A stretch of 64,000 bases of DNA, taken from NCBI GenBank assembly GCA_024398435.1, contig JAKSJD010000006.1:28276-92275 (forward strand), in the 5' to 3' direction. This document shows positions 12,703-56,702 of the stretch, piece by piece. Each line of letters opens with the position of its first letter. Position 1 is the first letter of the stretch. Both the position numbers and the translations under genes were made by a program. Origin of the DNA: Bacteroidaceae bacterium (lineage in GTDB: Bacteria; Bacteroidota; Bacteroidia; Bacteroidales; Bacteroidaceae). The notes under the pieces are model-generated. The model worked only from the letters and a program-made list of their open reading frames with translations. It made no database searches and had not been told where the DNA came from.

Positions 12703-12890
12703 ACTGCAAAGATAATAAATTATGTTGAAAGACGTATGAATATTTAGGAATTATTTATGGTTTCGGGCGAAATTTGCTATATAATAATATATAATAAGGT
12801 GTATGTGGGCAGTTTTTCGTTTTCACGGATTTCCGTGGTATATTATTGACATTATTCATGCAAAAGCAAGCATTCAACGTATCAAAAATA

Positions 12891-12979
12891 GGAATTCAGC
12901 GCTTCAAAAGCAAGAACTCAGTACTTCAAAAACAGTAATTCCGCACTTCAAAGACAGGAATTCTGCGCTTCAAATTCAC
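12891..12979. repeat. Tandem array, 4 units of ~22 bp (core CTTCAAA at 12902, 12924, 12946, 12968); a possible degenerate fifth unit at 12866-12890
   Basis: Units are GGAATTCAGCGCTTCAAAAGCAA, GAACTCAGTACTTCAAAAACAGT, AATTCCGCACTTCAAAGACA and GGAATTCTGCGCTTCAAATTCAC. Core spacing is 22/22/22. Confidence 0.85.
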
Positions 12980-13030
12980 TTTTTCGACACATATTGCCCC
13001 ATTTCCCTTTGTAGTTAGAAACTTTTGTCG

Positions 13031-13038
13031 TATCTTTG
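13031..13038 (+). promoter_or_regulatory. -7 box TATCTTTG, candidate promoter of the HU-like gene (implies a ~175-nt leader)
   Basis: Exact TAnnTTTG match between two repeat blocks, 183 nt upstream of the ATG at 13221. Confidence 0.45.
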
Positions 13039-13050
13039 CAGAGAAAAGTT

Positions 13051-13135
13051 ACGGCATCGTCGAGGGCGTATACGACATCGACGAGGTCGTTAACGACACC
13101 GACGATGATTTGCTAGGCATCGACGATGGCGTAAG
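13051..13135. repeat. Tandem array, 4 units of 21-22 bp, GC-rich (core TCGNCGA at 13057, 13078, 13099, 13120), with palindromes at unit junctions
   Basis: Units are ACGGCATCGTCGAGGGCGTAT, ACGACATCGACGAGGTCGTTA, ACGACACCGACGATGATTTGCT and AGGCATCGACGATGGCGTAAG. GTCGTTAACGAC (13086-13097) is a perfect 12-bp palindrome; GGCGTATACGAC (13065-13076) is a 10/12 palindrome. Confidence 0.85.
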
Positions 13136-13220
13136 AATACAACAAGAAGAACAAACCAATTCCTCGAGGACTTTCACATTTAGTAATCATACAAACCAAT
13201 AAACTCATAAATAGGACATC

Positions 13221-13844
13221 ATGAAATACGTTAAACAAGAATTCACAGACCTAAACGCCAAAGGCACCCCACAGCACTATTTCAAGCCTGTACTCGAAAC
13301 TCATGTCGACTGGAACGAATTGATTTTCCGAATGCGCTACCACAACCAGGGACTTACCGAAGGCGAAATCGTTTCAGTCATGGAACAGCTTCAGAAGACC
13401 TTGAGCGAACTCTTGGCTGAAGGACATTCAGTGGAAGTGGGCGGAATCGGCAATTTCACCCCTACCCTCGGTCTAAAAGAAGGAAAGGAAATGGATTCGC
13501 TCGATGGCGACGAAACCAAAAGAAATGCCCAAAGCATCAAAATCGACGGAATCAACATCGTTGCCGACAAAAAGCTCGTGGAAAAGGTGGAACACATGAG
13601 TCACCTAGAATATGGAGGCACAATCCGCCTTCGCCAGCAAATCTACACGAAGGAAGAACGACTCGAGAAGGCTATCGAATTCATCCAAGCCAATGGAGCA
13701 ATGCGACTTTCCGACTATTGCAACCTCGTGAATGTCTCTCACACCCAGTCGTCGAAAGAATTGCGCGAATTCGCCAACAACCCCGAAACTGGCATTATCC
13801 GTCAAGGCCGAAAAGCCCTTCTCGTCTATAAACTCCGCCAATAG
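13221..13844 (+). CDS. Bacteroidales HU-like (HU_HIG-type) DNA-binding protein with a C-terminal extension
   Basis: 207 aa. ...LSELLAEGHSVEVGGIGNFTPTLG... matches the HU-fold arm region of the Bacteroides histone-like family as I remember it. Confidence 0.65.
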   Translation: MKYVKQEFTDLNAKGTPQHYFKPVLETHVDWNELIFRMRYHNQGLTEGEIVSVMEQLQKTLSELLAEGHSVEVGGIGNFTPTLGLKEGKEMDSLDGDETKRNAQSIKIDGINIVADKKLVEKVEHMSHLEYGGTIRLRQQIYTKEERLEKAIEFIQANGAMRLSDYCNLVNVSHTQSSKELREFANNPETGIIRQGRKALLVYKLRQ

Positions 13845-13913
13845 GCAAATCGGCAAAATCGGACAAACCATAATTTTTTCTCCAATTTATTTGGTCGGTA
13901 AGAATTAAATTAC

Positions 13914-13921
13914 TACCTTTG
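13914..13921 (+). promoter_or_regulatory. -7 box TACCTTTG upstream of the 298-aa secreted protein gene
   Basis: TAnnTTTG match 27 nt upstream of the ATG at 13948. Confidence 0.45.
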
Positions 13922-13947
13922 CCACCGAACTAAAACAATAAACCGAA

Positions 13948-14844
13948 ATGAAAAGATTATTCGCACTCGCTACAATACTATGCGTGAGCATCAGCATGAT
14001 GGCTCTCTCAACATCTAAAATCCGCACCCATGCGCGCTTCATCTCCGACCGCATGGCCTACGAACTCGACCTCAACTACATGCAATACGAAGATTGCTAT
14101 GAGGTAAACTACGACTTCATCTATGCCGTCGACCGAATCATCGACGACGTTGTTTGGGGTTACGAAGATGCCATCTACGAGTATTATCGTCTGCTCGACT
14201 ACAGAAACGAGGACCTTTCATTCATCCTCTCATACAGTCAGTACCGCAAATTCATTGCTACCGACTATTTCTACCGCCCTATCTACACGAACGGACGAAG
14301 TTGGGGATTCCGTATTTACACCGCCTACAGCAACACATCTTTTTATTATTATAATAGACCATCAATATATACAACCTACAGAGGCGGACACAGCAGAATC
14401 AACAACATAGGCGGATTCTATGCAAACCGATATCCAGGACAAGACCGCTATCGCGACAACATTGCCATCCACAACTCACAGTCATTCACAGCTTTCCGCC
14501 GTGGCGACTTCGGCAACAACATCGTACAACGCAATGCCAATCCTGTGTACAACAACTACAATAACAAGAATGCAAACAACCGCACACAAGACTCTCGCTA
14601 CAGAGACGACAGCGGAAACCGCAATTCTCCTCAAATCAACAACGTGACTACAGGCAGAAGAAACAGCACAAGCTCATTCTCCAATCAGAACAGCAACTCA
14701 AACGCTGGAAGAACTTCCGCTAACTCATCGAATATTCAGAGGACAAATCCACAGGCAAACGGCAACAACTCACAATCAACAAACAATAACAATCAACCCG
14801 CAAATACAAACTCTTCAAGAACTGCAACAAGCTTCAGAAGATAA
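13948..14844 (+). CDS. Secreted low-complexity protein: Tyr-rich N-terminal half, Asn/Ser/Gln-rich C-terminal half
   Basis: Signal peptide MKRLFALATILCVSISMMA. The C-terminal ~110 aa read NANPVYNNYNNKNANNRTQ...NGNNSQSTNNNNQPANTNSS. No family recognised. Confidence 0.6.
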   Translation: MKRLFALATILCVSISMMALSTSKIRTHARFISDRMAYELDLNYMQYEDCYEVNYDFIYAVDRIIDDVVWGYEDAIYEYYRLLDYRNEDLSFILSYSQYRKFIATDYFYRPIYTNGRSWGFRIYTAYSNTSFYYYNRPSIYTTYRGGHSRINNIGGFYANRYPGQDRYRDNIAIHNSQSFTAFRRGDFGNNIVQRNANPVYNNYNNKNANNRTQDSRYRDDSGNRNSPQINNVTTGRRNSTSSFSNQNSNSNAGRTSANSSNIQRTNPQANGNNSQSTNNNNQPANTNSSRTATSFRR

Positions 14845-14904
14845 TAAAACGCATAAAACTATAATATTTTTGCAAAAATGTTTGGCTATTAAATAAAAAA
14901 GTCC

Positions 14905-14912
14905 TACATTTG
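14905..14912 (+). promoter_or_regulatory. -7 box TACATTTG upstream of galE
   Basis: TAnnTTTG match 47 nt upstream of the ATG at 14959. Confidence 0.5.
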
Positions 14913-14958
14913 CACCCACACAAAATCATTTCGACTAAAACTAATAGATAAAACAAAG

Positions 14959-15993
14959 ATGAAAGAGACAGTTCTCGTAACAGGTGGAACAGGCTTCATT
15001 GGCTCACATACAACAGTTGAATTACAACAAGCTGGCTACAATGTCGTAATCGTAGACAATCTCTCAAACTCCAACTCAGACGTACTCGACGGAATCGAAA
15101 AGATTACCGGCATACGCCCTGCTTTCGAGAAAGTTGACTGCTGCGACTATGAAGCTCTCGACAACGTCTTTACTAAATACAGCGACATCAAAGGCATCAT
15201 CCACTTCGCTGCAAGCAAGGCAGTAGGCGAATCAGTGGAAAAGCCTCTCATGTACTATCGCAACAACCTCAACTCACTCATCAATCTGCTCGAACTCATG
15301 CCAAAGCACGGAGTCAAAGGCATAATCTTCTCTTCTTCATGTACCGTATACGGACAGCCAGACAAAGAGAACTTGCCAGTAACAGAATCAGCTCCGATCA
15401 AGAAGGCAGAAAGCCCATACGGCAACACAAAGCAGATTAACGAGGAAATCATTCAAGACTACGTAAAGAGCGGTGCACCAATCAAGAGCATCGTACTCAG
15501 ATACTTCAACCCAATTGGCTCACACCCAACAAGCCACATAGGCGAACTTCCAAACGGTGTACCAGCAAACCTCATCCCTTACCTCACACAGACAGCAGCA
15601 GGTATAAGAGAATGCCTCACCGTCTTTGGCGACGACTACAACACACCTGACGGCAGTTGCATCCGCGACTACATCTATGTTGTCGACCTCGCAAAGGCAC
15701 ACGTTGCTGCAATGGCACGCATCCTCGACGATAAGGCAGAAGAACCAGTTGAATTCTTCAACATTGGTACAGGTCATGGAGTCAGCGTGCTCGAACTCAT
15801 CAACTCATTCGAACGCGCTACAGGTGTTAAGCTCAACTACAAGATAGGAGCACGCCGAGGAGGCGACATCGAAGCAATCTGGGGAAACGTAGACAAAGCA
15901 AACAAGGTGCTTGGATGGAAAGCCGACACTCCACTCGACGACATCCTCCTCTCTGCATGGAATTGGCAAAAGCATCTTGGAGAAAAGAAATAG
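14959..15993 (+). CDS. galE: UDP-glucose 4-epimerase
   Basis: 344 aa. Rossmann motif VTGGTGFIGSH, SSSCTVYG, catalytic YGNTK, then ...LRYFNPIGSHP... Confidence 0.93.
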   Translation: MKETVLVTGGTGFIGSHTTVELQQAGYNVVIVDNLSNSNSDVLDGIEKITGIRPAFEKVDCCDYEALDNVFTKYSDIKGIIHFAASKAVGESVEKPLMYYRNNLNSLINLLELMPKHGVKGIIFSSSCTVYGQPDKENLPVTESAPIKKAESPYGNTKQINEEIIQDYVKSGAPIKSIVLRYFNPIGSHPTSHIGELPNGVPANLIPYLTQTAAGIRECLTVFGDDYNTPDGSCIRDYIYVVDLAKAHVAAMARILDDKAEEPVEFFNIGTGHGVSVLELINSFERATGVKLNYKIGARRGGDIEAIWGNVDKANKVLGWKADTPLDDILLSAWNWQKHLGEKK

Positions 15994-16150
15994 GCTTAAT
16001 AAATTAATATTATATTATTACGCTACATTCAGTAAACAGTTCGCCGAATACAAGTATGAGAATATAGGTAGAAGGCACATGCAGGAGACTTCCCACATGG
16101 TGTTTACAAAAAAGTAGTTTTGTCGTGTTTTATTTTGTGTTTGTGTTGTG

Positions 16151-16187
16151 GCTGCCTTTTTACGCGAAGTAAAGAGGCAGCTTTTTT
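16151..16187 (+). terminator. Strong rho-independent terminator
   Basis: GCTGCCTTTTTA-CGCGAAG-TAAAGAGGCAGC gives a 12-bp stem including one G-U pair, followed by TTTTTT. Confidence 0.7.
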
Positions 16188-16315
16188 AGCAAAAAATCAA
16201 CACCTATTATTAAATATATAATATTTTACGAAATCCAATTAAACCTTTTTTAACTTACATAATCATATTAGCGAACAATTTCTTCCGAAAAATTAAATAA
16301 ATTTAAACATATAAA

Positions 16316-19306
16316 ATGAAAAGATTATTTACAATCGTGTTGATGGCAGTATTGGCAAGCCTCACAATCACTGCACAGACAACAACAACTGCTGCCTCAA
16401 GAGCAACAACAAAGAAACTTACAAAAGCAAACGTAACCGGTTATGTAAAAGACTCTGAAACAGGAGAAGCGCTCGTGCGAGCTACTATCCAGATCATGTC
16501 AGAGGACACTACAAAGATGATCACAGGTGGTGTGACAAACACATTAGGTGGTTACACAATCAAAAACGTAGAAGAAGGTAACTATGTAGTCAAGATTTCT
16601 TATATCGGCTACCACGACTTCTTCCGCAAGATGACAGTAAAGAACGCAGAAACAATCCACAACGTCGGAACTGTACTGCTCACACCTAACAGCATCCTCA
16701 TCGAAGGAGCTGTCGTAACTGGTGCAATGCCACAGGTGGAAGTACACGAAGACACACTCATATTCAATGCCGATGCATTCAAGGTTCCTGAAGGTTCCGT
16801 ACTCGAAGACCTCGTAAAGAAGCTCCCAGGCGCAGAAGTTGACGAAGACGGTAACATCAAGATCAATGGTAAGAGCATCACACAGATTCTCGTCAATGGT
16901 AAGGAATTCTTCTCTAACGACCGAAACATGGCAATGAAGAACCTCCCAACAGAAATCATCGACAAGATTAAGACTTATGACAAGCAGTCAGACCAAGCTC
17001 GTCTTTCAGGTATCGACGATGGTAACGAACAAACCGTAATCGACCTTACTATCAAGAAAGGCATGAACAGAGGATGGTTCGGTAACATCAACGGCGGTGT
17101 AGGTACAAACGACCTCTACAACGGACGTATCAACCTCAACCGCTTCCAGGAAGAAGTCCAGGGATCAATCATAAGCAACCTCAGCAGCCAAGCACGAAAC
17201 GGTGGACGCGCAAAGAACTCACAGTTCGGTCTCAACCTCGTAAGCGGTAGCGAAGAAGAAGGCAACATCATCGGTGGTAACATCCGCTACACTGGCGGCA
17301 GCAACACAGGTGCTTCAAGATCTTCAAGCGAAAACTATGTAACAACAAAGACTACATATTCAAACCGCAGCAACACTAACCGCAGCACCAACGACGGTAT
17401 CAGCGGTGATATGCGAATTGAATGGCAGCTCGACTCAATGTCACGACTCCTCTTCCGTCCAAACTTCTCATATAGCGGTTCAACAAGCCGTAGCAGAGGT
17501 CTTAGTGCACAGTTCAACGAAAACCCTTACGACTTCGATGGAATCACAGACCCTCTCAACCAGTTGGAAGACATTGCAGCTAACTATAAGAACTATTTCG
17601 TAAACAAGAACGAAAGTGCAAGCAAGTCAAACAACACTAGCTACAACTTCGGAGGTAACCTCACATACAACCGTAGATTCTCAAACGGAGGACGAAACAG
17701 CGGACGTAACATCCAGGTCAACGCAAGCGGTTCATACAGCCACAGCGATGGCAAGAACTTCAACCTCTCTGACGCTATCTACTATCAGCGTGGCGACTCT
17801 GCCGACTACATCTACCGTTATCGTACATCTCCAAACAACAACACTAACCTCAGCGGTGGTTTCTCTTACAGCGAACCTCTCGGCAACAACGGTTGGTACT
17901 TGCAGTTCAGCTACAATCTCAGCTATAGCAAGAGAAAGAGCGATAGCAACACATACAACTTAGGTAAGATCCAGTCAATGCGCGACTCTATCGCAACCCA
18001 CTATCTCGGCTATCTCCCTGATATGTATAATGAATACCTCGATGACGACTTGAGTAACTACACTCTCGACAAGAACATCAACCAGAACATCAACCTCAAT
18101 GTTCGTTGGAACACTACATACATCGTATCTTCAGTAGGTATCCAGATGCAGCCTCAGCACCAGAAGATTGAGTACGACTATCAGAATATCGATACAATTG
18201 CTTCACGCAACTACTTCAGAATCTCACCTACTGCAAACATTCAGTACAGATTCAATCGTCAGCACACTATCCGATTCACTTATCGTGGTAACATGCGACA
18301 GCCATCAATCACCGACTTGTTCGATATCACAGATGACAGCAACCCTCTCAACATCCGTAAGGGTAATCCAAACTTGAAGCCATCATTCACAAACAACTAT
18401 AGCATTCAGTACAACAACTACCTGACTGCTACAATGCAGACAATCAATGGTAACTTCTCATTCAGCAATACAAGCAAGAATATCGGACAGAAGACTCAGT
18501 ACAACGAAGATACCGGTGGATCAATCTCTCAGCCAGTAAATATCGATGGCAACTGGGATGTAAGTGGAAATATCGGATTCAATACACCACTCTTCTCTAA
18601 CGAACGATTCATGATCAATACAAGCACTTCTGCTTCTTACAGCAACCAAGCTGCTTATATCTATCAGAACCATGAGACATTGAAGAATCAGGTTAACAAC
18701 CTCCGTCTCGGTGAAAACATCCGTATAAGCTACCGCTCAGACTATTGGGATATAGGTGCAAGAGGTCAAATCACTTACATGGATGTAGACAACAAGTTCG
18801 TTGAAGCAAGTAGCCGCAACACATTCGACTTCAGCTACGGTTTCTCTTCAACAGGTAACTTCGAAAACGGATTCGGTTACAGCACAGACATCAACATGAG
18901 CAGCCGTCGCGGTTATAGCTCTAAGTCAATGAACACAAACCAGCTCATTTGGAATGCTCAGGTTAGCTACCGCTTCCTCAAGAACCGTGCACTCACAGTA
19001 AGTTTGGCAGCATACGACATTCTCAACCAGAGAGACCAAGTTAGTCGTAGCATCAGTGCTACAGGACGTACTGACCAGGAAGTTAAGAACGTAAGCCAGT
19101 ATCTCATGCTCAACCTCACATACCGCTTCAACTTGTTCGGAAGCCGTTCTGGTCGTCAGAACCTCCGTCAGGAAAGAGCTGACCGTGAACAGATGCGTGC
19201 CAACATGCCAGCAGCAGGAGCAGGAATGCCAGCCGGTGGTGGTATGACAGGCGGTCCACGTGGTGGATTCGGTGGCGGTAACATGGGAGGCGGCGGACGC
19301 TTCTAA
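16316..19306 (+). CDS. Outer-membrane beta-barrel / TonB-dependent-receptor-like protein (CarboxypepD_reg-like N-domain, OMP_b-brl_3 type) with a Gly/Met-rich C-terminal tail
   Basis: Signal peptide. GYVKDSETGEALVRATIQI (carboxypeptidase-regulatory-like), plug-like LEDLVKKLPGAEVDEDGNIKINGKSITQILVNGKEFF, a long Asn/Ser/Tyr-rich barrel, and a tail ending ...GGPRGGFGGGNMGGGGRF. Confidence 0.8.
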   Translation: MKRLFTIVLMAVLASLTITAQTTTTAASRATTKKLTKANVTGYVKDSETGEALVRATIQIMSEDTTKMITGGVTNTLGGYTIKNVEEGNYVVKISYIGYHDFFRKMTVKNAETIHNVGTVLLTPNSILIEGAVVTGAMPQVEVHEDTLIFNADAFKVPEGSVLEDLVKKLPGAEVDEDGNIKINGKSITQILVNGKEFFSNDRNMAMKNLPTEIIDKIKTYDKQSDQARLSGIDDGNEQTVIDLTIKKGMNRGWFGNINGGVGTNDLYNGRINLNRFQEEVQGSIISNLSSQARNGGRAKNSQFGLNLVSGSEEEGNIIGGNIRYTGGSNTGASRSSSENYVTTKTTYSNRSNTNRSTNDGISGDMRIEWQLDSMSRLLFRPNFSYSGSTSRSRGLSAQFNENPYDFDGITDPLNQLEDIAANYKNYFVNKNESASKSNNTSYNFGGNLTYNRRFSNGGRNSGRNIQVNASGSYSHSDGKNFNLSDAIYYQRGDSADYIYRYRTSPNNNTNLSGGFSYSEPLGNNGWYLQFSYNLSYSKRKSDSNTYNLGKIQSMRDSIATHYLGYLPDMYNEYLDDDLSNYTLDKNINQNINLNVRWNTTYIVSSVGIQMQPQHQKIEYDYQNIDTIASRNYFRISPTANIQYRFNRQHTIRFTYRGNMRQPSITDLFDITDDSNPLNIRKGNPNLKPSFTNNYSIQYNNYLTATMQTINGNFSFSNTSKNIGQKTQYNEDTGGSISQPVNIDGNWDVSGNIGFNTPLFSNERFMINTSTSASYSNQAAYIYQNHETLKNQVNNLRLGENIRISYRSDYWDIGARGQITYMDVDNKFVEASSRNTFDFSYGFSSTGNFENGFGYSTDINMSSRRGYSSKSMNTNQLIWNAQVSYRFLKNRALTVSLAAYDILNQRDQVSRSISATGRTDQEVKNVSQYLMLNLTYRFNLFGSRSGRQNLRQERADREQMRANMPAAGAGMPAGGGMTGGPRGGFGGGNMGGGGRF

Positions 19307-19322
19307 TAATTGCTAGAAAAGT

Positions 19323-19353
19323 AAAAGGCTCACCTCAACGAGGCGAGCCTTTT
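19323..19353. terminator. Bidirectional hairpin terminator between the convergent OMP gene and dapA
   Basis: AAAAGGCTCACCTC-AAC-GAGGCGAGCCTTTT (one mismatch), with an A-run and a T-run on either side. Confidence 0.65.
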
Positions 19354-19433
19354 ACTTTTTATTAATAATATAATGTACTATACCAACTACATATTTTTGA
19401 AAAGATTACTAATCACTTCAATACTTACACCTA

Positions 19434-28266: not shown

Positions 28267-28274
28267 TATCTTTG
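28267..28274 (+). promoter_or_regulatory. Orphan -7 box TATCTTTG, 488 nt upstream of relA, directly in front of the repeat blocks
   Basis: Exact TAnnTTTG match with the same flank (TATCTTTGCA) as the box at 13031. No ORF follows it. Confidence 0.35.
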
Positions 28275-28300
28275 CATTTCAATGCCACAAAACAAAACCA

Positions 28301-28410
28301 AAAACTCATAAAAACGAAACTCAAAACTCACAAAGACGAAACTCAGAACTCATAAAAACGAAACCTCAAACTCACAAAAACAAACCATAAAACTTGCACG
28401 AACTAAAGTT
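28301..28410. repeat. Tandem array, 5 units of 21-23 bp, almost pure C+A (core ACTCA at 28304, 28326, 28348, 28370)
   Basis: Units are AAAACTCATAAAAACGAAACTC, AAAACTCACAAAGACGAAACTC, AGAACTCATAAAAACGAAACCTC, AAACTCACAAAAACAAACCAT and AAAACTTGCACGAACTAAAGTT. Confidence 0.85.
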
Positions 28411-28434
28411 AATTTTCCCAGCTTCAAATTCAGA

Positions 28435-28521
28435 GTCATAAGTTATGACTTGCAAGTCGTAAGCTTATGTCGTTCAAGTCATAATGTTATGTCTTTGAAG
28501 TCATAACTTATGACTCTAAAA
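28435..28521. repeat. Tandem array, 4 units of 21-22 bp, each with the dyad GTCATAA-N-TTATGAC; homologous to 39131-39217
   Basis: Units are GTCATAAGTTATGACTTGCAA, GTCGTAAGCTTATGTCGTTCAA, GTCATAATGTTATGTCTTTGAA and GTCATAACTTATGACTCTAAAA. 28502-28528 is identical to 39198-39224. Confidence 0.9.
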
Positions 28522-28727
28522 ATATTCTTAGAAAAATCGGTAAATATTCGATGATGAAACATGCTTTTATACGGGGTGGTTGGAAAAATAAATATCGTCC
28601 CGTGAAATGACCAAATACCAATCACAAGATTTCATATTCTGTTTATAAAACAGGAACCTCCGATAAAGGTCGAAAAAATTTCTTTCTTAATATTTCCGAA
28701 AAACTTGCTCATGTAAAAAATTTTTAC

Positions 28728-28735
28728 TATATTTG
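28728..28735 (+). promoter_or_regulatory. -7 box TATATTTG, proximal promoter of relA
   Basis: TAnnTTTG match 27 nt upstream of the ATG at 28762. Confidence 0.5.
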
Positions 28736-31002: not shown

Positions 31003-31476
31003 ATGAAGACAATTCTCATACAAGTAGGCAAGACAACAAGCAAAGACTTCCAAGTGATTATCGACGATTATACAAGTCGAGTGAAGCACTATTGCCAATT
31101 TGACATTGTCACCATACCAGAACTAAAGAACACAAAAGCCCTCTCACAAGAGCAACAAAAGCATCAGGAAGGCGAACTGATACTCAAGCAATTACAGGAC
31201 AGCGACTATGTAGTGGTGCTCGACGAACACGGAAAAGAACTCCGAAGCATCGAACTTGCCAGTTGGATAGAGAAAAAGCAACAAACCGTCAGTCGCAACC
31301 TCATATTCATCATCGGAGGTCCTTACGGCTTCTCACCCGAAGTCTATCAAAGAGCCAACGAAAAACTCTCACTATCGAAGATGACATTCTCCCACCAAAT
31401 GATTCGCATGATATTCATCGAACAGCTCTACAGAGCATACACAATCATCCGAGGCGAGCAATATCATCACGAATAA
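31003..31476 (+). CDS. rlmH: 23S rRNA (pseudouridine1915-N3)-methyltransferase
   Basis: 157 aa SPOUT protein: MKTILIQVGKT...IFIIGGPYGFS...SLSKMTFSHQM. Confidence 0.92.
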   Translation: MKTILIQVGKTTSKDFQVIIDDYTSRVKHYCQFDIVTIPELKNTKALSQEQQKHQEGELILKQLQDSDYVVVLDEHGKELRSIELASWIEKKQQTVSRNLIFIIGGPYGFSPEVYQRANEKLSLSKMTFSHQMIRMIFIEQLYRAYTIIRGEQYHHE

Positions 31477-31675
31477 CGAATAACAAAAATCACGAACCAA
31501 AAAGAGAAAAATCATATATTATATATAATAAATGTATAAATAAATCGAAAAAAACTGCTCAAACATTTGGGCATTTCATAATATTTGCATAACTTTGGCA
31601 CCGAATTAAGTGCTAATTGCAATCCAAAACGAGAATTTGAAATTAAATTATTACTAACAAATTAATTATTTCTTT

Positions 31676-34319: not shown

Positions 34320-35795
34320 ATGAACCGCAAACTAACCTACACAATCCTCACATTGGTATTGGCTAACATTGTCAATACTTCATTATATGCACAGGTAAAC
34401 TATTGCCCAAACGATGATTGCACAAAGTGCCGACTTCTTCGTGAGGTTGACTATCAGTTCAATGCAATTCGTAATGACATCACTCTCCCTCAAACCCTCG
34501 ACGGAAAGACAATTCATTGGCAGATTGAGAACAGGGAAGGCGGAGACACTCCATACATGGCTTTTGACGGCCAAACCATTCATATCAAGTCGTTACCAAA
34601 GGGAGAATACCAACCAGCAGGCACATTGTATGCTGAAGTTGGAGGCGAAAAGGTTAAGTTCAATCTCACTTTAGCTCCAGATGATGAAATGTTTGGTTAT
34701 CTCTATTGCCACATGGCTGGAAATGGAGAGAACACCAATTATGCGATAGGAACAAAAGCTGACCGAGGCGAGATTTTCTACCCTATCATCAACAATCAAC
34801 CTATCTTCAATCCCGAAGATGTTGCAAAAATCGAAGGTGGAGTTCGCGATGCTTTTATCATCAGAGGTAAGGACAACAACTATTTGATGGTGAACACAGA
34901 CATGTGTAACCGCAAAAGCCGAGTTTGGTTCAATTATGGAATCGACCTACTCAAATCCAACGACCTCATACATTGGACATCAGTTTCGTTCGATTTCCGC
35001 AAAGGCAATGAAGTGTTCTCCGACCCTCAAAGCAAGGATTATATAAAAGATTACAAGAAGATTAACAGAGTTTGGGCTCCACAAATCATTTGGGATGAAG
35101 ACTATAATGATGGCGAAGGCGGCTACCTTATCTACTATTCTATCCTCAGCACAAATGAGGGCGACACTTATGATAAGATTTATTATTCGTATGCCAATCG
35201 AGATTTCACAACATTGACAAAGCCTCAACTCATGCACGATCATGGAATATCCGTAATCGACTGCCATATAGATTGGAATGATTGCGACCGCCGATATCAT
35301 GTATTCTATAAGAAAGAAGGAGCAGCAGGTGTTGACAGAGGCATATACGAAGCGGTGTTCGACAAACTTCCCGTATCGGAATGGCGAAATGTGCTTCATA
35401 TCACGAATGAAGGCAAAGAGCAAGTTGAGGGTGGAAGTGCTTTCCGTCTCATCAACGAAAACACATGGAAAGTCACTTACATAAAGTATTCCGGCCAAAG
35501 AGTTTATCGCGTATGCAATGCTAATGCAACAGAAGAGAATGTCGATCGTGGTGTAGTGATTGGAACGAACGTAAATCCTCAGCATGGTTCGTTCATGCAA
35601 ATCACGAAAGACGAATATGACCTTTTGCAAGCATGGTCGGATTTAAAGCTTAAAGTTCAAGAACTTGAAGCCAACCCAAAGGCTGCAAAGAGCAAGAAAC
35701 TAAAGGTTGCAAAAGAGGCATTGGAGAAGACTTTCGCAACCAATTCAGTTCCTCTGTTGTTGAAGCTATATAAGGATACGATTAAAACATTATAA
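34320..35795 (+). CDS. Secreted five-bladed-propeller glycoside hydrolase, GH43-like
   Basis: I prefer the ATG at 34320 (MNRKLTYTILTLVLANIVNTSLYAQ, signal peptide; 491 aa). Blocks GGVRDAFIIRG, RVWAPQIIWD and EGGSAF resemble the GH43 catalytic Asp/Asp/Glu contexts. Subfamily not assignable by eye. Confidence 0.65.
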   Translation: MNRKLTYTILTLVLANIVNTSLYAQVNYCPNDDCTKCRLLREVDYQFNAIRNDITLPQTLDGKTIHWQIENREGGDTPYMAFDGQTIHIKSLPKGEYQPAGTLYAEVGGEKVKFNLTLAPDDEMFGYLYCHMAGNGENTNYAIGTKADRGEIFYPIINNQPIFNPEDVAKIEGGVRDAFIIRGKDNNYLMVNTDMCNRKSRVWFNYGIDLLKSNDLIHWTSVSFDFRKGNEVFSDPQSKDYIKDYKKINRVWAPQIIWDEDYNDGEGGYLIYYSILSTNEGDTYDKIYYSYANRDFTTLTKPQLMHDHGISVIDCHIDWNDCDRRYHVFYKKEGAAGVDRGIYEAVFDKLPVSEWRNVLHITNEGKEQVEGGSAFRLINENTWKVTYIKYSGQRVYRVCNANATEENVDRGVVIGTNVNPQHGSFMQITKDEYDLLQAWSDLKLKVQELEANPKAAKSKKLKVAKEALEKTFATNSVPLLLKLYKDTIKTL

Positions 35796-35864
35796 GAAAT
35801 GACCTCAAACATTATAAGAAATGAGGCCAAACATTATAAGAAAATAATACAAACTAATTTATAC
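35778..35864. repeat. Tandem array, 3 good units plus 1 degenerate unit of 22 bp (ACATTATAAGAA at 35787, 35809, 35831); the first unit contains the stop codon of the upstream gene
   Basis: Units are ACGATTAAAACATTATAAGAA, ATGACCTCAAACATTATAAGAA, ATGAGGCCAAACATTATAAGAA and AATAATACAAACTAATTTATAC. Confidence 0.85.
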
Positions 35865-39032: not shown

Positions 39033-39122
39033 TCATTCGTCTATTTTCTTTGAAACCTTTTTCTATTCCCATTGAATCATTTGTCTATTTCAGTTAAAAC
39101 ATTTATTAATTTCCATTGTAAT
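39033..39122. repeat. Tandem block, 2 x 44 bp (readable as 4 x 22)
   Basis: TCATTCGTCTATTTTCTTTGAAAC+CTTTTTCTATTCCCATTGAA is followed by TCATTTGTCTATTTCAGTTAAAAC+ATTTATTAATTTCCATTGTAAT. Confidence 0.65.
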
Positions 39123-39130
39123 ATTTTGTA

Positions 39131-39217
39131 GTCATAACTTATGACTTTGTAGTCGCAACATTATGTCTTTCAAGTCATAAGGTTATGACTTGAAAGACAT
39201 AACTTATGACTCTAAAA
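39131..39217. repeat. Tandem array, 4 units of 21-22 bp with the GTCATAA-N-TTATGAC dyad; second copy of the element at 28435-28521
   Basis: Units are GTCATAACTTATGACTTTGTA, GTCGCAACATTATGTCTTTCAA, GTCATAAGGTTATGACTTGAAA and GACATAACTTATGACTCTAAAA. The unit-start spacing (21/22/22) is the same as at the 28-kb copy. Confidence 0.9.
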
Positions 39218-39262
39218 ATATTCTAGGAGAAAGATGTTTTGAAAATGGATGTTTTGGATTAT

Positions 39263-39317
39263 GTTTCCATATTGTTCCGATATTGTTCCCATGTTGTTTT
39301 TATGCTGTTTCCATGCT
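39263..39317. repeat. Five exact-period 11-bp tandem repeats (GTTYCNATRYT)
   Basis: GTTTCCATATT, GTTCCGATATT, GTTCCCATGTT, GTTTTTATGCT, GTTTCCATGCT. They are preceded by a 2 x 15-16 nt repeat: GATGTTTTGAAAATG / GATGTTTTGGATTATG (39233-39263). Confidence 0.85.
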
Positions 39318-39382
39318 TTTGGGCGAATACACATTATATAATATTACGCGTACGCGAGAAACTGGAAGAATGGCAAAAAGAA

Positions 39383-46370: not shown

Positions 46371-46409
46371 GAATGGCAGCTGTCTTTCCATACAAAGGCA
46401 GCTGCATTC
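46371..46409. terminator. Strong hairpin after the GH43 gene (no clean T-run)
   Basis: GAATG(G)CAGCTG...CAGCTGCATTC gives an 11-bp stem with one bulge. Confidence 0.4.
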
Positions 46410-46440
46410 GAAATAAAGAGCATTGCTCGTCTGCAAAAAA

Positions 46441-46531
46441 GAACGCGGTTCGCAGGGTAAAACATCGCGGTTCGAAGACCGATTTCTCGCGGTTCGTGAC
46501 CCAATGTTTCGCAATGTTTTTCACATATATT
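46441..46531. repeat. Tandem array, 4 units of 22 bp (CGCGGTTCG at 46444, 46466, 46488; CGCAATGTT at 46510); its reverse complement shares words with the array at 56637-56702
   Basis: Units are GAACGCGGTTCGCAGGGTAAAACA, TCGCGGTTCGAAGACCGATTTC and TCGCGGTTCGTGACCCAATGTT, then a degenerate unit starting TCGCAATG. The reverse complement contains CACGAACCGCGAGAAAT. Confidence 0.85.
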
Positions 46532-52535: not shown

Positions 52536-52544
52536 ATCAACAAT

Positions 52545-53396: not shown

Positions 53397-53415
53397 CTCA
53401 AACCAACAAAATAAG

Positions 53416-54735
53416 ATGAAAGTAATGAAATTTGGCGGTACTTCTGTTGGTACCCCACAAAGAATGAAAGAAGTAGTGAAACTGATATCTGATGCAGATC
53501 AGAAGATTGTTGTATTGTCTGCAATGTCAGGAACCACAAACCAACTTTACGAAATTTCAGATTATCTCTACAAGAAGAATCCAGTAGGAGCAAACGAAAA
53601 CATCAATATTCTTGAAGAGAAATACTACAAACATGTTGACGAACTCTACACAACGGAAGAATATAAAGAAAAGACACGTCAGTTCCTTAAGCAGGAATTC
53701 GATTATATCCGTTCGTTCACAAAAGGAATATTCACGATGTTTGAAGAGAAGATTATCGTTGGCCAGGGTGAAATCCTCAGTACCAATATGGTTACGAACT
53801 ATCTTCTTGAACAAGGATACAATGCTGCCCTACTCCCAGCTCTCGACTTTATGCGAACAGACAAGAACAGCGAACCTGATCTTGAATATATTCGCGAGAA
53901 GCTGAAGATAACACTTGCAGAAATGCCGAACAAGGATATTTATATCACTCAAGGCTTTATTTGTCGCAATGCATATGGAGAAGTAGACAACCTTCAAAGA
54001 GGAGGAAGCGACTATTCTGCATCACTCATTGGTGCAGCCATTGAAGCTTCGGAGATTCAGATATGGACAGATATTGACGGAATGCACAATAATGACCCTC
54101 GTTATGTTGAAAACACATCACCTGTTCAAACTCTCAGTTTCGAGGAAGCATCAGAGTTGGCATATTTCGGAGCGAAAATACTTCACCCAACATGTGTGCA
54201 ACCAGCTAAGTTTGCCGGCATTCCAGTAAAACTTCTCAACACAATGGATCCAACGGCTCCTGGTACTGTAATCAGCAATAAAACTCAAAGAGGAAGCATT
54301 AAAGCCGTTGCTGCAAAGGACAACATTACAGCTATAAATATCACTTCAAGCCGAATGCTGCTTGCCTATGGTTTCCTTCGCAAAGTGTTTGAAATCTTCG
54401 AAACCTACAAGACAAGTATTGATATGGTCACAACGAGTGAGGTCGGAGTTTCTGTATCAATTGACAATACCAGCAACCTCAGCCAGATCTTGAACGAACT
54501 CAAGAAACTCGGCACTGTAAGTGTTGATGTCGACATGTGTATCATTTGTGTTGTTGGCGACCTCGACTGGCACAATATTGGTTTCGAGTCGTTGGCAACA
54601 GAAACGATGAAGGATGTTCCGGTACGAATGATCAGTTACGGAGGAAGCAATCACAATATTTCTTTCCTCGTGGCTGCTGCTGATAAGAAGAAAGCCCTTC
54701 AGTCACTTAGCAATCACTTATTCAAAAATAATTAA
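53416..54735 (+). CDS. lysC: Aspartate kinase
   Basis: 439 aa. MKVMKFGGTSVG..., VVLSAMSGTTN, C-terminal ACT domains. Confidence 0.9.
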   Translation: MKVMKFGGTSVGTPQRMKEVVKLISDADQKIVVLSAMSGTTNQLYEISDYLYKKNPVGANENINILEEKYYKHVDELYTTEEYKEKTRQFLKQEFDYIRSFTKGIFTMFEEKIIVGQGEILSTNMVTNYLLEQGYNAALLPALDFMRTDKNSEPDLEYIREKLKITLAEMPNKDIYITQGFICRNAYGEVDNLQRGGSDYSASLIGAAIEASEIQIWTDIDGMHNNDPRYVENTSPVQTLSFEEASELAYFGAKILHPTCVQPAKFAGIPVKLLNTMDPTAPGTVISNKTQRGSIKAVAAKDNITAINITSSRMLLAYGFLRKVFEIFETYKTSIDMVTTSEVGVSVSIDNTSNLSQILNELKKLGTVSVDVDMCIICVVGDLDWHNIGFESLATETMKDVPVRMISYGGSNHNISFLVAAADKKKALQSLSNHLFKNN

Positions 54736-54737
54736 GG

Positions 54738-55913
54738 ATGACGACAAACAACACATACCCAACACGACAAGCACTTCAGCAATTCGACACTCCTTATTAT
54801 TATTATGACACAGAACTTCTGCGTCAGACTTTGGCTGCAATAAAAGCAGAAACAGCAAGCCACAACAACTATTTCGTTCATTATGCGGTCAAGGCAAATG
54901 CCAATCCAAAGCTTTTGAAGATTATCAAGGAAGCCGGTTTTGGTATTGATTGCGTTAGCGGAGGCGAGATTCAAGCCGCTCTTGATGCTGGTTTTCCAGC
55001 TGAAAGCATTATGTTTGCGGGGGTTGGAAAAGCTGATTGGGAAATCGAATTAGGATTGGATGCCGGCATTTGCTGCTTCAACATTGAGAGCGTTCCTGAA
55101 ATGGAAATAATCAATGAAATTGCTGTTCGCAAAGGAAAGACAGCAAATGTTTGCCTCAGAATCAATCCAAACGTTGAAGCTCACACTCATGCAAACATCA
55201 TGACAGGGCTTTCCGAAAACAAGTTCGGAATTGCAATGACTGATATGATTGATGTGATTAAGCGAATTGAGCAATTGGAACAAATCCATTTCCTCGGACT
55301 TCATTTCCACATTGGAAGTCAAATCTTGAAGATGGATGATTTCCTTCGCCTTTGCGACAGAATCAACGAATTGCAGGATTATCTCGAAGAAAATGGTTAC
55401 AAGGCAGAAATAATCGATGTTGGTGGAGGACTTGGAGTGGATTATGATGCTCCAGAAGAGAACCCGATTCCAGCTTTCAATGCCTATTTTGACGTTTATC
55501 GAAAGAATCTCAAACTGAGAGAAGGTCAGCAACTCCATTTCGAACTTGGTCGAGCTGTAGTGGCTCAATGTGGAAGTCTTATCACTAAAGTTCTTTTCGT
55601 AAAGGAAAACGGAAACAAGAAATTCGTTATAGTTGATGCCGGAATGACAGAACTTATCCGCCCTGCCCTTTATGGTGCTCATCACAAAATCGTGAATCTC
55701 ACAAGCACTGAAACAGCAGAAACCTATGATGTTGTAGGTCCCATCTGCGAATCGAGTGATGTTTTCGACAAGGACATTCCACTTGCAAAGACAAAGAGAG
55801 GCGATTTGATTGCTATAAAAACTGCCGGTGCATATGGAGAGACAATGGCTTCATGCTATAATTGCAGAAAACTGCCTAACGGATACACTACAGAAGACAT
55901 TATGTCAGTATAA
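54738..55913 (+). CDS. lysA: Diaminopimelate decarboxylase
   Basis: 391 aa PLP fold-III decarboxylase. YAVKAN, ...HFHIGSQ..., DVGGGLGV, GPICESSD. Confidence 0.92.
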   Translation: MTTNNTYPTRQALQQFDTPYYYYDTELLRQTLAAIKAETASHNNYFVHYAVKANANPKLLKIIKEAGFGIDCVSGGEIQAALDAGFPAESIMFAGVGKADWEIELGLDAGICCFNIESVPEMEIINEIAVRKGKTANVCLRINPNVEAHTHANIMTGLSENKFGIAMTDMIDVIKRIEQLEQIHFLGLHFHIGSQILKMDDFLRLCDRINELQDYLEENGYKAEIIDVGGGLGVDYDAPEENPIPAFNAYFDVYRKNLKLREGQQLHFELGRAVVAQCGSLITKVLFVKENGNKKFVIVDAGMTELIRPALYGAHHKIVNLTSTETAETYDVVGPICESSDVFDKDIPLAKTKRGDLIAIKTAGAYGETMASCYNCRKLPNGYTTEDIMSV

Positions 55914-55967
55914 ATACTGTTGGCACATAGTTTGCTGATAATTTTGATGTAAACAATTAAAACATTC

Positions 55968-56543
55968 ATGATGAAAGATAAAGAAAACGAAGAAATCGAA
56001 GAGGAAGTAAAGCAAGAAACTCCTAACACAGAGGAAGATGTAGAAACTGCAGAAACAGAAGTGGCAGAGGAAACTGAAGAGGAAACCATTGAGCAGCAAT
56101 TGGAAAAAGCCAACGAAAAGATTGCTGAAATGGATGACAAGTACCTCCGTCTTATGGCAGAATTCGACAATTACCGTCGTCGCGTCATTAAGGAAAAGGC
56201 AGAACTCATCCTCAATGGTGGAGAGAAAGTGTTGAAGGACTTGCTTCCGGTGATTGATGATTTGGAGAGAGCTCAACAAGATATTGCTACTTCTACTGAT
56301 ATGGAAGGCGTAAAAACTGGCGTCGACCTTATCATCAAGAAGTTTGTCGACTATCTCAAAGCTCAGGGTGTTGAGGAAATTGAGACGAAGGATCAGGCAT
56401 TCGATGACAACCTTCACGAAGCAATCGCAATGATTCCAAGCCCAACGGAAGAACTAAAAGGCAAGATTATCGATTGCACAAAGAAGGGCTACACAATGAA
56501 TGGCAAGGTAATTCGTCATGCTCAGGTAGCTGTCGGAGGCTAA
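55968..56543 (+). CDS. grpE: Nucleotide exchange factor GrpE
   Basis: 191 aa. Acidic N-terminus, YLRLMAEFDNYRRR, and the C-terminal ...GYTMNGKVIRHAQVAV. Confidence 0.92.
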   Translation: MMKDKENEEIEEEVKQETPNTEEDVETAETEVAEETEEETIEQQLEKANEKIAEMDDKYLRLMAEFDNYRRRVIKEKAELILNGGEKVLKDLLPVIDDLERAQQDIATSTDMEGVKTGVDLIIKKFVDYLKAQGVEEIETKDQAFDDNLHEAIAMIPSPTEELKGKIIDCTKKGYTMNGKVIRHAQVAVGG

Positions 56544-56636
56544 TACATATATAATATAATAATATGTGTATTGTGGCCGAAAAACGAAGACAATATCGGC
56601 ATAAAAAATATGCTATATAGAGTCGTCAAAAAAGAT

Positions 56637-56702
56637 CGCAAGAAATGACCTCGAGTTTCGCGAGAAATTGCCTCGAGTTTCGCGAGAAATGACCTCACGA
56701 AC
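56637..56702. repeat. Tandem array, 3 units of 22 bp (CGCAAGAAAT / CGCGAGAAAT at 56637, 56659, 56681), each with the small dyad CTCGAG-TTT-CGCGAG
   Basis: Units are CGCAAGAAATGACCTCGAGTTT, CGCGAGAAATTGCCTCGAGTTT and CGCGAGAAATGACCTCACGAAC. Confidence 0.85.

Follow-up and report, generated by a model that had tools for sequence, protein, structure and literature searches.

Intergenic tandem arrays with a common unit length of 22 bp in a Prevotella-family chromosome

Why do intergenic tandem arrays of mostly unrelated sequence share one unit length? The question is raised by the genome of a rumen/gut bacterium of the Prevotella family, which carries many short non-coding arrays of 22-bp units placed head-to-tail. 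The window analysed here, a stretch of 64,000 nucleotides, has the gene content of an ordinary chromosome, with PPDK, LigA, DnaB, RelA, the his operon, GrpE/DnaJ and glycoside hydrolases. It contains no rep gene or origin context and no transposase close to the arrays, and it gave no plasmid or phage match. On balance, we favour the reading that the arrays are fast-evolving non-coding minisatellites (VNTRs) whose units, throughout the clade, tend to be about 22 bp long.

Arrays of the window

Tandem Repeats Finder was run on the window and supplied array coordinates, periods and copy numbers, while a scan of lags 5 to 60 in 66-nt windows, with a threshold of 68% match, returned matches only at lags 21, 22 and 44. 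The window bears nine intergenic arrays with period 22 (one of them period 21) and one 11-bp array, listed below with the strand where one was assigned.

A1, 12861-12974: Tandem Repeats Finder, period 22, 5.2 units of CAAAAACAGGAATTCAGCGCTT; VNTR.
A2, 13050-13133, plus strand: period 21, four units, with the palindromes CATCGnCGATG and GTCGTWWACGAC alternating (Tandem Repeats Finder 13050-13105; four cores by eye, to 13133).
Additional -7 box of Bacteroidetes type, TATCTTTG, 28267-28274, plus strand: just upstream of A3 and A4.
A3, 28289-28394: Tandem Repeats Finder, period 22, 4.8 units of AAAACGAAACTCAAAACTCACA; VNTR.
A4, 28429-28530: four GTCATAAnTTATGAC-type units, period 21/22/22, and the tail TCTAAAAATATTCT; copy 1 of a dispersed element (Tandem Repeats Finder 28429-28512, period 22, 3.9 copies).
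A5, 35785-35854: Tandem Repeats Finder, period 22, 3.2 units of AAACATTATAAGAAA plus a variable 7-mer; VNTR.
A6, 39034-39126: Tandem Repeats Finder, period 22, 4.2 units of CATTTGTCTATTTCCATTGAAA; absent from the list of the preliminary description.
A7, 39125-39226: copy 2 of the GTCATAAnTTATGAC x4 element, sharing the tail of A4, in a convergent gap (Tandem Repeats Finder 39125-39211, period 22, 4.0 copies).
11-bp array, 39262-39315: Tandem Repeats Finder, 4.9 copies of TGTTTCCATGT, in the gap of A6 and A7.
A8, 46444-46512, minus strand: an exact CGCGGTTCG core (CGAACCGCG on the minus strand), present three times at 22-bp intervals (Tandem Repeats Finder 46465-46512, 2.2 copies; four cores by eye from 46444).
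A9, 56636-56706, plus strand: period 22, 2.8 units of TCGCGAGAAATGACCTCGAGTT and the tail CACGAACCGC, in the grpE-dnaJ gap (Tandem Repeats Finder 56636-56696, 2.8 copies).

The coordinates and core spacings given in the preliminary description all hold when checked against the sequence, and comparison of the units agrees with it that the blocks are mostly unrelated. Its figure of about four units does not stand as a fixed number, since copies range from 2 to 5 in the window and depend on the strain. The dyad that it placed in each unit is present in A2, A4 and A7 and weakly so in A1, A8 and A9; A3, A5 and A6 lack it.

Strains of the same species (RelA about 100% identical) gave a divided answer on copy number. 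A1, A3 and A5 vary, and their size differences are exact multiples of 22 bp. A1 has 5, 6, 7 or 8 units, corresponding to gaps of 518, 540, 562 or 584 bp, and the ORF predicted there by gene callers does not hold its frame among strains. A3, which is C/A-rich, unstructured and built as 7+7+8, has one unit more in strains L163 and L164 (5.8 versus 4.8). A5 separates two GH43 genes and has 2, 3 or 5 units, with its conserved positions clustered (p = 0.005). Constant copy number was found in A4 (all strains compared), in A6 and A7 (two other strains), in A8 (same gap length and cores in strain L165) and in A9 (100% identity in three strains), and this counts against the VNTR reading. A6 lies in a convergent gap, directly past a terminator-like hairpin.

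Period and placement across Prevotellaceae

The comparative set comprised 2.5 Mb of sequence drawn from some 125 related Prevotellaceae genomes, almost entirely metagenome-assembled, with an intergenic part of 356 kb. The period spectrum, proposed earlier as a check, shows a sharp peak at 22 bp in this intergenic DNA: 43 tandem repeats have period 22, 13 have period 21 and 10 have period 23, against 2-3 at 19-20 and 2-4 at 24-26, whereas coding arrays peak at multiples of 3 instead. The peak is present alike in arrays of two, three and at least four copies, and outside the called arrays, too, exact 8-mers in direct repeat have a clade-wide peak of spacing at 22. A smaller peak, likewise clade-wide, lies at periods 10-11. 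With 11 bp to a helical turn, 22 and 11 bp amount to two turns and one.

Convergent gaps hold 0.33 arrays per kb, co-directional ones 0.20 and divergent ones 0.13, and the 22-bp peak is equally sharp in all three. In 24 co-directional arrays neither strand nor composition was biased with respect to transcription. The arrays have 46% G+C versus 35% for the surrounding gaps, a difference that counts against the minisatellite reading; no motif common to them was found, and in most of them mismatches are scattered over whole units. Dyads are enriched but not universal: of 32 units from the clade, 14 reach 7 or more symmetric pairs out of 11, where chance would give 13%.

The arrays are lineage-specific. 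The array-bearing gaps of the window had no homologues in other species. The DUF4301-relA gap, which holds A3, is 728 bp long in the window, whereas most relatives have only 100-200 bp there; expanded versions of it occur in L012, L082, L009 and L030 as well, with a different 22/23-bp array in each and additional non-repeat DNA besides the arrays. Orthologous 6-unit arrays in L015 and L090 share substitutions unit-wide, as in concerted evolution.

If the arrays are minisatellites, each would be born locally in a tolerated intergenic gap, resized in whole-unit steps, probably by replication slippage or unequal sister-strand exchange, and homogenised internally. A strong tendency to units of about 22 bp, and a minor one to 11 bp, would be common to Prevotellaceae and probably to Bacteroidales more widely; unrelated arrays would reach one period because of it. 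The excess of dyads would be expected if units able to form hairpins were more prone to slippage. Selection would mainly set where arrays survive, most in 3'-3' gaps and fewest between divergent promoters. A mutational process with a 22-nt register, mentioned as an alternative in the preliminary description, fits the bulk of the data. We know of no ruler in simple slippage, and the sharp 22-bp mode is described here rather than explained. The compensatory changes of A2 and the conserved core of A8 with its free spacers are beyond what neutral junk predicts, and these two look like a constrained minority: the HU-HIG leader may retain A2 at its 5' end as a long hairpin, while A8 and the related array upstream of araD resemble a 9-bp site repeated in phase. 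Dispersal or a common function is needed besides local birth for A4/A7 and for the CGAACCGCG / CGCGAGAAAT words, two unit families which occur at separate loci of this species.

Hairpins, dispersed copies and phased sites

The arrays could instead be transcribed as parts of 5' leaders, operon spacers and 3' UTRs and form strings of hairpins, or a single long one, with roles in mRNA stability, processing or termination. For A2, A4 and A7 the predicted folds are much more stable than those of shuffled sequences (z = -6 to -10). The whole of A2 folds into one long hairpin of 86 nt (-40.5 kcal/mol, z = -6.2). It apparently lies at the start of the HU-HIG leader, beginning a few nucleotides past the transcription start predicted from a -7 box at 13031. 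Two strain haplotypes of A2 differ by symmetric core swaps in which 9 base pairs are changed on both sides; 97.7% of cells are still paired, versus about 0 in slid controls. One of these double-sided changes, pair 26-70, is compatible only with the long hairpin, and a G-U pair is kept on the sense strand. The core switch and the HU-like gene lie in one divergent haplotype block, which is linkage and not binding. The folds of A4 (-43.7 kcal/mol, z = -10.5) and A7 (-35 to -38 kcal/mol, z = -8.6 to -9.6) are also long hairpins or strongly negative, respectively, and arrays in L021 have CUUCGG-type hairpins on the sense strand, directly past stop codons. However, A1, A3 (0 kcal/mol), A5, A6, A8 and A9 have no significant structure, the co-directional arrays lack strand bias, A4 and A7 offer no informative covariation or compensatory change, and an Rfam search gave no match. 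Changes that preserve a palindrome could also arise in DNA, through cruciform- or hairpin-templated repair. The hairpin-in-leader alternative of the preliminary description thus agrees with A2 only, and as a general account it is unlikely.

A second possibility is that the arrays are small mobile or dispersed elements containing a minisatellite, of the BrickBuilt or MITE/REP model, which spread and diverged while keeping an inherited 22-bp period. A4 and A7 are 86% identical over 95 nt (28434-28528 versus 39130-39224), including their non-repeat tail, and the metagenome contig L002 begins within A4. The core ACACATGCGG is arrayed at two loci of L021, and one hairpin pair occurs at two loci of L085 and inverted in L003; the extra non-repeat DNA of the expanded gaps points the same way. 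The sharing of short words among loci, described earlier, is real: GAAATGACC occurs 5 times versus 0.68 expected, GTCATAAnTTATGAC 4 times versus 0.27, and CGCGAGAAA exactly 4 times, each in an array-bearing gap. The CGAACCGCG / CGCGAGAAATGACCTCAC words are found, single or arrayed, in at least five gaps of this species, AAGAAATGACCTC is common to A5 and A9, and the A9 tail resembles the ends of A8 and of the array at L167:13987. Words outside the arrays are as follows.

GAAATGACC word, 28604-28612, plus strand: single copy, common to A5 and A9.
CGCGAGAAA word, 39353-39361, plus strand: single copy, common to A8 and A9.
Two GGCAGCTG words exactly 22 bp apart, 46384-46413: read from the sequence; a proto-array or a decayed array.

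Against mobility, terminal inverted repeats, target duplications and a conserved leader or tail were not found, nor were the BrickBuilt unit consensus and terminal repeat; most arrays are unique in sequence and none has a transposase nearby, in an examined portion of this genome of only about 74 kb. We regard general mobility as improbable.

Still less probable is that the units are sites for a dimeric or tandem-binding protein, set on one DNA face two turns apart as operators or iteron-like arrays. The best case is A8, which lies 65 nt upstream of a GH31 gene. Its three perfect 9-mers are separated by unrelated 13-nt spacers, a degenerate fourth unit accompanies them, and its conserved columns are contiguous (p = 0.0004). 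The core is also arrayed upstream of araD (L167:13987-14038, a same-species contig 10 kb to the right of the window), with only 2 matches elsewhere in 2.5 Mb. Upstream of relA, which has its own -7 box at 28728, a GAAAAATG-N14-GAAAAATG pair is kept across Xylanibacter-group loci; the additional box at 28267-28274 may serve as a further promoter. The enrichment in dyads would also suit binding. For the hybrid two-component (HTCS, AraC-type) regulators of Bacteroides, the predicted operators are direct repeats with a spacing of about 21 bp, on one DNA face, upstream of glycan-utilisation genes (Ravcheev et al. 2013, PMC3878776), and A8 and L167:13987 match this geometry and context. These operators consist, however, of two conserved sites with a free spacer, kept across species, whereas most arrays here repeat whole units in 3-8 copies, are species-specific and copy-variable, and often lie in 3'-3' gaps.

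A1 is the best-placed operator candidate because it lies upstream of a two-component operon, the histidine-kinase operon and the HU-HIG gene diverging from it. One of its units has a TAnnTTTG box on the minus strand at 12883. Yet A1 is hypervariable, and the adjacent response regulator, 76-86% identical across the family, faces an unrelated 22/23-bp repeat at the orthologous operon of another species. Array density is highest in convergent 3'-3' gaps, where there are no promoters, which argues against an operator role; the likeness of most arrays beyond their cores, their different sequence at each locus and in each species, and their strain-dependent copy number do likewise. The iteron or operator arrays of the preliminary description therefore fail as a general explanation, and an operator-like geometry is plausible for A8 only. 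Plasmid-type iterons such as those of the R6K gamma origin, also direct tandem units of about 22 bp, were rejected: they are one sequence, Rep-bound beside a rep gene in an origin, whereas the arrays here occupy at least nine chromosomal loci with many sequences and no rep gene or origin features.

Relation to known repeat families

The closest known case is BrickBuilt of Porphyromonas gingivalis, whose genome carries intergenic 23-nt BrickBuilt and 22-nt tandem repeats of strain-variable copy number (PMC4596501); tandem direct repeats of 22, 23 and 41 nt from the W83 genome report are cited in the same study (Klein et al. 2015, PMC4596501). Like the arrays here, BrickBuilt occurs in Bacteroidales, is always intergenic, consists of imperfect 22-23 nt units placed head-to-tail without spacers, varies in copy number among strains at conserved loci and is associated with broken assemblies. 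It differs in that a single sequence family (AGAYCATARTATCCTCTCRTRTG) occupies 19 loci and has leader and tail modules, IS5-like terminal repeats and up to 23 units. The present arrays have 2-8 units, mostly unrelated in sequence from array to array, lack the consensus, and showed no leader, tail or terminal repeats; they are not members. REP/BIME and BOX-type elements are likewise intergenic and modular, with palindromic units single or clustered, but in REP families hundreds of copies follow one genome-wide consensus and alternate in orientation, while the arrays here have no consensus and run strictly head-to-tail at a fixed 22 bp.

To our knowledge, one modal unit length common to many unrelated arrays across a bacterial family has not been reported, and a literature search for such a case found none. 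Apart from that mode, the arrays resemble the bacterial VNTRs or minisatellites used in MLVA typing, which have units of 10-100 bp, whole-unit changes among strains and concerted evolution.

Tandem arrays of the window and their variation between strains

In the window, Tandem Repeats Finder detected nine arrays (A1 to A9), of which A2 has period 21 and the others period 22. They lie at or beside the places where the preliminary description had seen blocks of 21-22-bp units, and direct reading of the sequence confirmed every core-to-core spacing of that description. Same-species strains were taken as contigs with RelA about 100% identical. The arrays and their copy numbers in these strains are as follows.

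Tandem arrays of the window
12861-12974: A1, period 22; 5, 6, 7 or 8 units in same-species strains (gap of 518, 540, 562 or 584 bp)
13050-13133: A2, period 21; 5' of the HU-like gene HU-HIG
28289-28394: A3, period 22; 4.8 or 5.8 units in same-species strains
28429-28530: A4, period 22; copy number constant (2-3 strains compared)
35785-35854: A5, period 22; 2, 3 or 5 units in same-species strains
39034-39126: A6, period 22, newly found by Tandem Repeats Finder; copy number constant (2-3 strains compared)
39125-39226: A7, period 22; copy number constant (2-3 strains compared)
39262-39315: 11-bp array, found by Tandem Repeats Finder
46444-46512, minus strand: A8, period 22; copy number constant (2-3 strains compared)
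56636-56706: A9, period 22; copy number constant (2-3 strains compared)

The period is not a pattern picked by eye, since an independent self-match scan of the window (66-nt windows, at least 68% self-match, lags 5-60) gave matches at lags 21, 22 and 44 only. The copy number of about four proposed earlier is not fixed, A1 having 5-8 and A5 2, 3 or 5 units across strains. The exchange of short words between loci was borne out, with counts beyond chance: GAAATGACC occurs 5 times (0.68 expected), GTCATAAnTTATGAC 4 times (0.27 expected) and CGCGAGAAA exactly 4 times, always in an array-bearing gap, and 28434-28528 shares 86% identity with 39130-39224 over 95 nt.

Without exception, the arrays are intergenic, in an ordinary chromosomal region that encodes PPDK, NAD-ligase, DnaB, PurT, RelA/SpoT, a SPOUT methyltransferase, several GH43 and GH31 proteins, the his operon, GrpE, DnaJ, a histidine kinase with its response regulator, and the HU-HIG protein. 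No replication initiator or transposase adjoins any array in the window. An Rfam scan of the whole window gave no match at or above the gathering threshold, a tRNA scan of the window gave no match, and searches of plasmid and phage records revealed no similarity. A Bacteroidetes-type -7 box (TAnnTTTG) is located shortly 5' of A2 (13031) and of A3/A4 (28267), relA having a separate box at 28728; the gaps of A5, A6, A7, A8 and A9 contain none. Exact-protein look-ups with HU-HIG, GrpE and a DUF3987 protein matched only the window's own genome.

In most relatives, the DUF4301 gene and relA are separated by 100-200 bp, and repeats of 7-8 bp fill this gap between a pair of divergent -7 boxes. The gap is expanded in the window (728 bp) and in the relatives' loci L012 (558 bp), L082 (696 bp), L009 and L030 (both >300 bp), and each expanded gap holds a 22/23-bp array, with a different sequence every time. 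No homologues of the window's array-bearing gaps were found in other species. In strain L172, A1 is strongly diverged between near-identical flanks. In two species about 77% identical regionally (L015 and L090), an orthologous array of six units separates relA from the following gene, and the substitutions common to its units are a signature of concerted evolution. The head-to-tail units of 10-100 bp and the whole-unit polymorphism between strains (A1, A3 and A5) are those of a VNTR, or minisatellite.

A hypothetical ORF of 59-93 aa is called over A1 in public gene calls (window 12803-13018, plus strand; in strains, L168:2639-2920, L169:2705-2920, L170:2741-2920 and L172:2495-2758). Its length and frame vary with array copy number between strains, and A1 is non-coding because the 22-bp steps break the frame of the overlying ORF, which is almost certainly spurious.

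Period spectrum across the clade and possible origin of the 22-bp unit

Period spectra were obtained from about 160 relA-centred loci (2.46 Mb) of species-representative genomes and metagenomes, almost wholly metagenome-assembled genomes, with gene models from our own ORF calls. The nearest relatives outside the species have a RelA identity of only 81-86%, with none between 86% and about 100% in the collections searched. This check, which the preliminary description had proposed, gave a sharp intergenic mode at 22 bp in the relatives: 356 kb of intergenic DNA contained 43 arrays of period 22, against 13 of period 21 and 10 of period 23, with 2-3 arrays each at periods 19-20 and 2-4 each at 24-26. 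The same 356 kb showed a second sharp peak at 7 bp (170 arrays), and a minor peak was present at periods 10-11. Arrays within genes, unlike the intergenic ones, have periods that peak at multiples of three. The 22-bp peak was seen in 2-copy, 3-copy and at least 4-copy arrays alike, in simple 8-mer direct repeats that lie outside any called array, and in every gap class, including convergent 3'-3' gaps (11 arrays of period 22, one of 21 and two of 23). Array density was as follows.

Arrays of 21-23 bp per 100 kb of intergenic DNA
Window: about 110
Relatives with RelA identity of at least 60%: 27-28
Prevotella/Xylanibacter group, RelA identity 54-60%: 11
More distant Bacteroidales, RelA identity below 54%: 8

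With orthologous pairs set aside, the unit sequences are mostly unrelated across the clade, and no k-mer is common to them at a significant level. A universal motif, including CACGAAC, was rejected after correction for multiple testing. On average the 22-mers contain no 7- or 11-nt sub-period, A3 alone being built as 7+7+8. The dyad earlier ascribed to each unit proved common and not universal: at least 7 of 11 pairs are symmetric in 14 of 32 units, against 13% by chance. The arrays have a G+C content of 46% (other gaps, 35%), and neither their strand nor their composition is biased with respect to the direction of transcription; they are densest in convergent gaps, followed by co-directional and then divergent ones.

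The weight of this evidence favours fast-evolving minisatellites whose common trait is unit length, because the unit sequence is arbitrary while whole units are alike within an array, because concerted evolution, lineage specificity and a turnover of units between strains are observed, and because density follows the order of gap classes above without strand bias. From what is established for tandem repeats, resizing would proceed through slippage or unequal exchange. The peak is equally sharp in promoter-free gaps, which argues against selection for promoter phasing and favours a bias in the birth or retention of duplications, in line with the mutational 22-nt register that had been listed only as an alternative. 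A phase-neutral spacer, in which only whole-turn insertions between promoter elements are tolerated, is disfavoured by the equally sharp convergent-gap peak.

Two turns at 11 bp per turn describes the 22-bp period and gives no mechanism. A sequence-independent, geometry-dependent process of the Bacteroidales that creates or preferentially keeps 11- and 22-bp tandem duplications is conceivable, if rather unlikely; candidates for such a ruler would be a nucleoid protein whose footprint is 22 bp, or a step of replication, repair or recombination with that footprint. Given such a process, any intergenic sequence could be converted to a 22-bp array, the arrays would be the trace of a lineage-specific molecular ruler, and they would provide raw material for new binding sites in phase, on the pattern of A8, and for long hairpins of the A2 kind.

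One modal unit length over unrelated minisatellites family-wide points to an unrecognised bias in making or keeping duplications, which is directly measurable. The arrays are also natural VNTR strain markers for uncultured rumen and gut Prevotellaceae, and they disrupt assemblies and draw spurious gene calls, such as those of 59-93 aa over A1. Moreover, they enlarge the compact promoter regions or 5' leaders of relA, grpE-dnaJ, the two-component operon and glycoside hydrolases, and copy-number change may therefore tune expression.

Among the intergenic repeats of these Prevotellaceae, tandem heptamers are the most frequent (median 4.6 copies, many unrelated sequences), and heptamer repeats have been reported for other bacteria (PMC4679880, PMC4692102). 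They often occupy the inter-promoter space of divergent genes or come after stop codons. Heptamer repeats are general in the loci L003-L162, for example as TAATTGA repeats at L003:9870-9915, and in the window they occur at 28293-28352, 3325-3348 and 31469-31484. The window's species has few heptamer arrays and many 22-mer arrays. A second array-rich genome, the human-gut MAG HGM04614 (L021), carries five 22-bp arrays in 22 kb (725-784, 3686-3867, 7955-8076, 15414-15517 and 17927-18114). Two of them have CUUCGG-type hairpins immediately 3' of stop codons, and two others have the core ACACATGCGG in common, in opposite orientations.

Operator-like and hairpin-forming arrays

Operator arrays and strings of RNA hairpins had both been proposed for these repeats; the former is plausible at A8 only and the latter supported at A2 only, and neither serves as a general account. 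In A8, the CGCGGTTCG core is repeated three times without mismatch, and the 13-nt spacers are unrelated to one another (p = 0.0004); the geometry of these phased direct repeats is like that of Bacteroides HTCS operators, in which direct repeats lie about 21 bp apart (PMC3878776). The CGCGGTTCG core is also arrayed 5' of araD, in a same-species contig that reaches 10 kb past the window, and is almost absent elsewhere (2 matches in 2.5 Mb). The combination of conserved sites and non-conserved spacers, the HTCS/AraC-type pattern, has a p of 0.0004 at A8, is marginal at A5 and is absent from the remaining tested arrays of at least three units. From this analysis, an operator reading is plausible at A8 alone.

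A role for A1 as operator for the neighbouring response regulator was rejected, since the array is hypervariable (5-8 units) and the orthologous operon of another species has an unrelated repeat. The two-component pair concerned (8749-12702 and 7991-8722, both on the minus strand) is widely conserved. Its kinase has 1317 aa with DUF5112/DUF5113 sensor modules and about 590 C-terminal residues without a match in the Pfam scan, and its response regulator, with a C-terminal DUF5932, has an identity of 76-86% in hundreds of Prevotellaceae contigs. About 56 nt 5' of relA, a direct repeat with 22-bp spacing and a variable spacer, GAAAAATG-N14-GAAAAATG, is conserved across Xylanibacter/Prevotella species (L050, e.g. 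L050:9894, L054, L060, L061, L117 and L121), and it looks like a putative genuine regulator binding site.

With regard to folding, A1, A3 and A5 form an unstructured hypervariable class that folds no better than shuffled sequence (A3, 0 kcal/mol), while A2, A4 and A7 have palindromic units and each form one long hairpin (z of -6 to -10). A2 has two haplotypes in the species, the second being found in strains L168 and L172. In the latter, CATCGnCGATG is changed to CATAAnTTATG in all four units, and GTATAC and GTTAAC are exchanged with the intervening sequence retained. A long-hairpin model leaves 97.7% of cells paired, with changes on both sides in 9 of 32 pairs, a signal that falls to about zero when partners are slid by 1-3 columns. 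A local-dyad model performs about equally (both sides changed in 10 of 29 pairs), and a compensatory pair at columns 26-70 is compatible with the long hairpin only. A G-U pair is retained on the sense strand.

On these grounds A2 is a structure under constraint, and most simply a predicted 5'-terminal hairpin of the HU-HIG mRNA. A process at the DNA level, for example palindrome-templated repair, may instead account for the changes. A4 and A7 gave no informative covariation. A2 illustrates how an array can turn into a selected structure.

The two haplotypes differ in a block with sharp bounds (13055-13260), in which the A2 cores are switched and the rest of the leader is unalignable, the DNA on either side being nearly identical between strains. 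The block extends into the first 13 HU-HIG codons, with four changes (residues 9-13, TDLNA to ADFHG). Whether HU-HIG changes in step with the A2 cores is not informed by these strains, as the protein has four N-terminal differences alone, all within this one recombination block. The joint change appears as linkage and is no evidence of binding to the array.

Comparison with described repeats and dispersal of unit families

BrickBuilt, an intergenic 23-nt minisatellite of Porphyromonas gingivalis whose copy number varies between strains and for which long stem-loops are predicted (PMC4596501), is the closest described case; P. gingivalis W83 has 22-, 23- and 41-nt tandem repeats (PMC4596501). 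The arrays resemble it in being intergenic and strain-variable in copy number at conserved loci. By sequence they are not members: the BrickBuilt unit AGAYCATARTATCCTCTCRTRTG has no match in the window at up to 3 mismatches, and its IS5-like terminal repeat GAGACCTTTGCA has 6 (up to 2 mismatches) versus 6.6 by chance, none beside an array. The present arrays carry the minisatellite phenomenon over to the Prevotellaceae. Our literature search found no described 22-bp repeat class for Prevotella/Bacteroidales beyond BrickBuilt, and no description of many unrelated sequences with one modal period family-wide.

REP/BIME elements are a many-copy consensus palindrome, often alternating, whereas here there is no consensus and all units are direct (about 74 kb of the genome). 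CRISPR repeats are separated by unique spacers of like length, while the present units abut at period 22 without spacers. The likening to plasmid iterons failed its defining tests. Plasmid and chromid iterons sit in an origin next to a Rep gene and are copies of one sequence for one protein, whereas the nine arrays lie among housekeeping and glycan-utilisation genes, without a rep gene, origin or plasmid match, and have mostly unrelated units with no shared k-mer. Period-21/42 arrays inside genes are protein repeats, and the present arrays are non-coding. An assembly artefact (22 = k+1, k = 21) was rejected because the copies are imperfect and in contig interiors, independent assemblies reproduce them with SNP and whole-unit differences, and repeats of this kind are also present in finished P. 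gingivalis genomes.

In this species, two families of units are each found at more than one locus. One is A4/A7, with a common tail; the other consists of the words CGAACCGCG and CGCGAGAAATGACCTCAC, which are arrayed in A8, A9 and at L167:13987 and have single occurrences at 28604, at 39353 and, in strain L168, in a second HU-HIG gene's leader. Unit families likewise recur in L021, L085 and L003. Neither terminal repeats, target duplications or a conserved leader or tail around the arrays nor conserved flanks between the array-bearing gaps of the window were found.

The paired-hairpin element CCCCTAGGGG-N11-CCCCTTAAGGG, with 22-bp spacing, is present twice in L085 (92-144 and 12793-12966) and is inverted at the orthologous site of a related genome (L003:12912-12979). 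A 29-nt inverted repeat, 97% identical (window 344-372 and 3312-3340), brackets two genes at 585-3232, one of which encodes a DUF3987/BT4734-like primase-type protein. At this position beside PPDK, strain L168 has the second HU-HIG gene and a GH97 gene instead, and the bracketed segment of the window looks like a strain-specific insertion.
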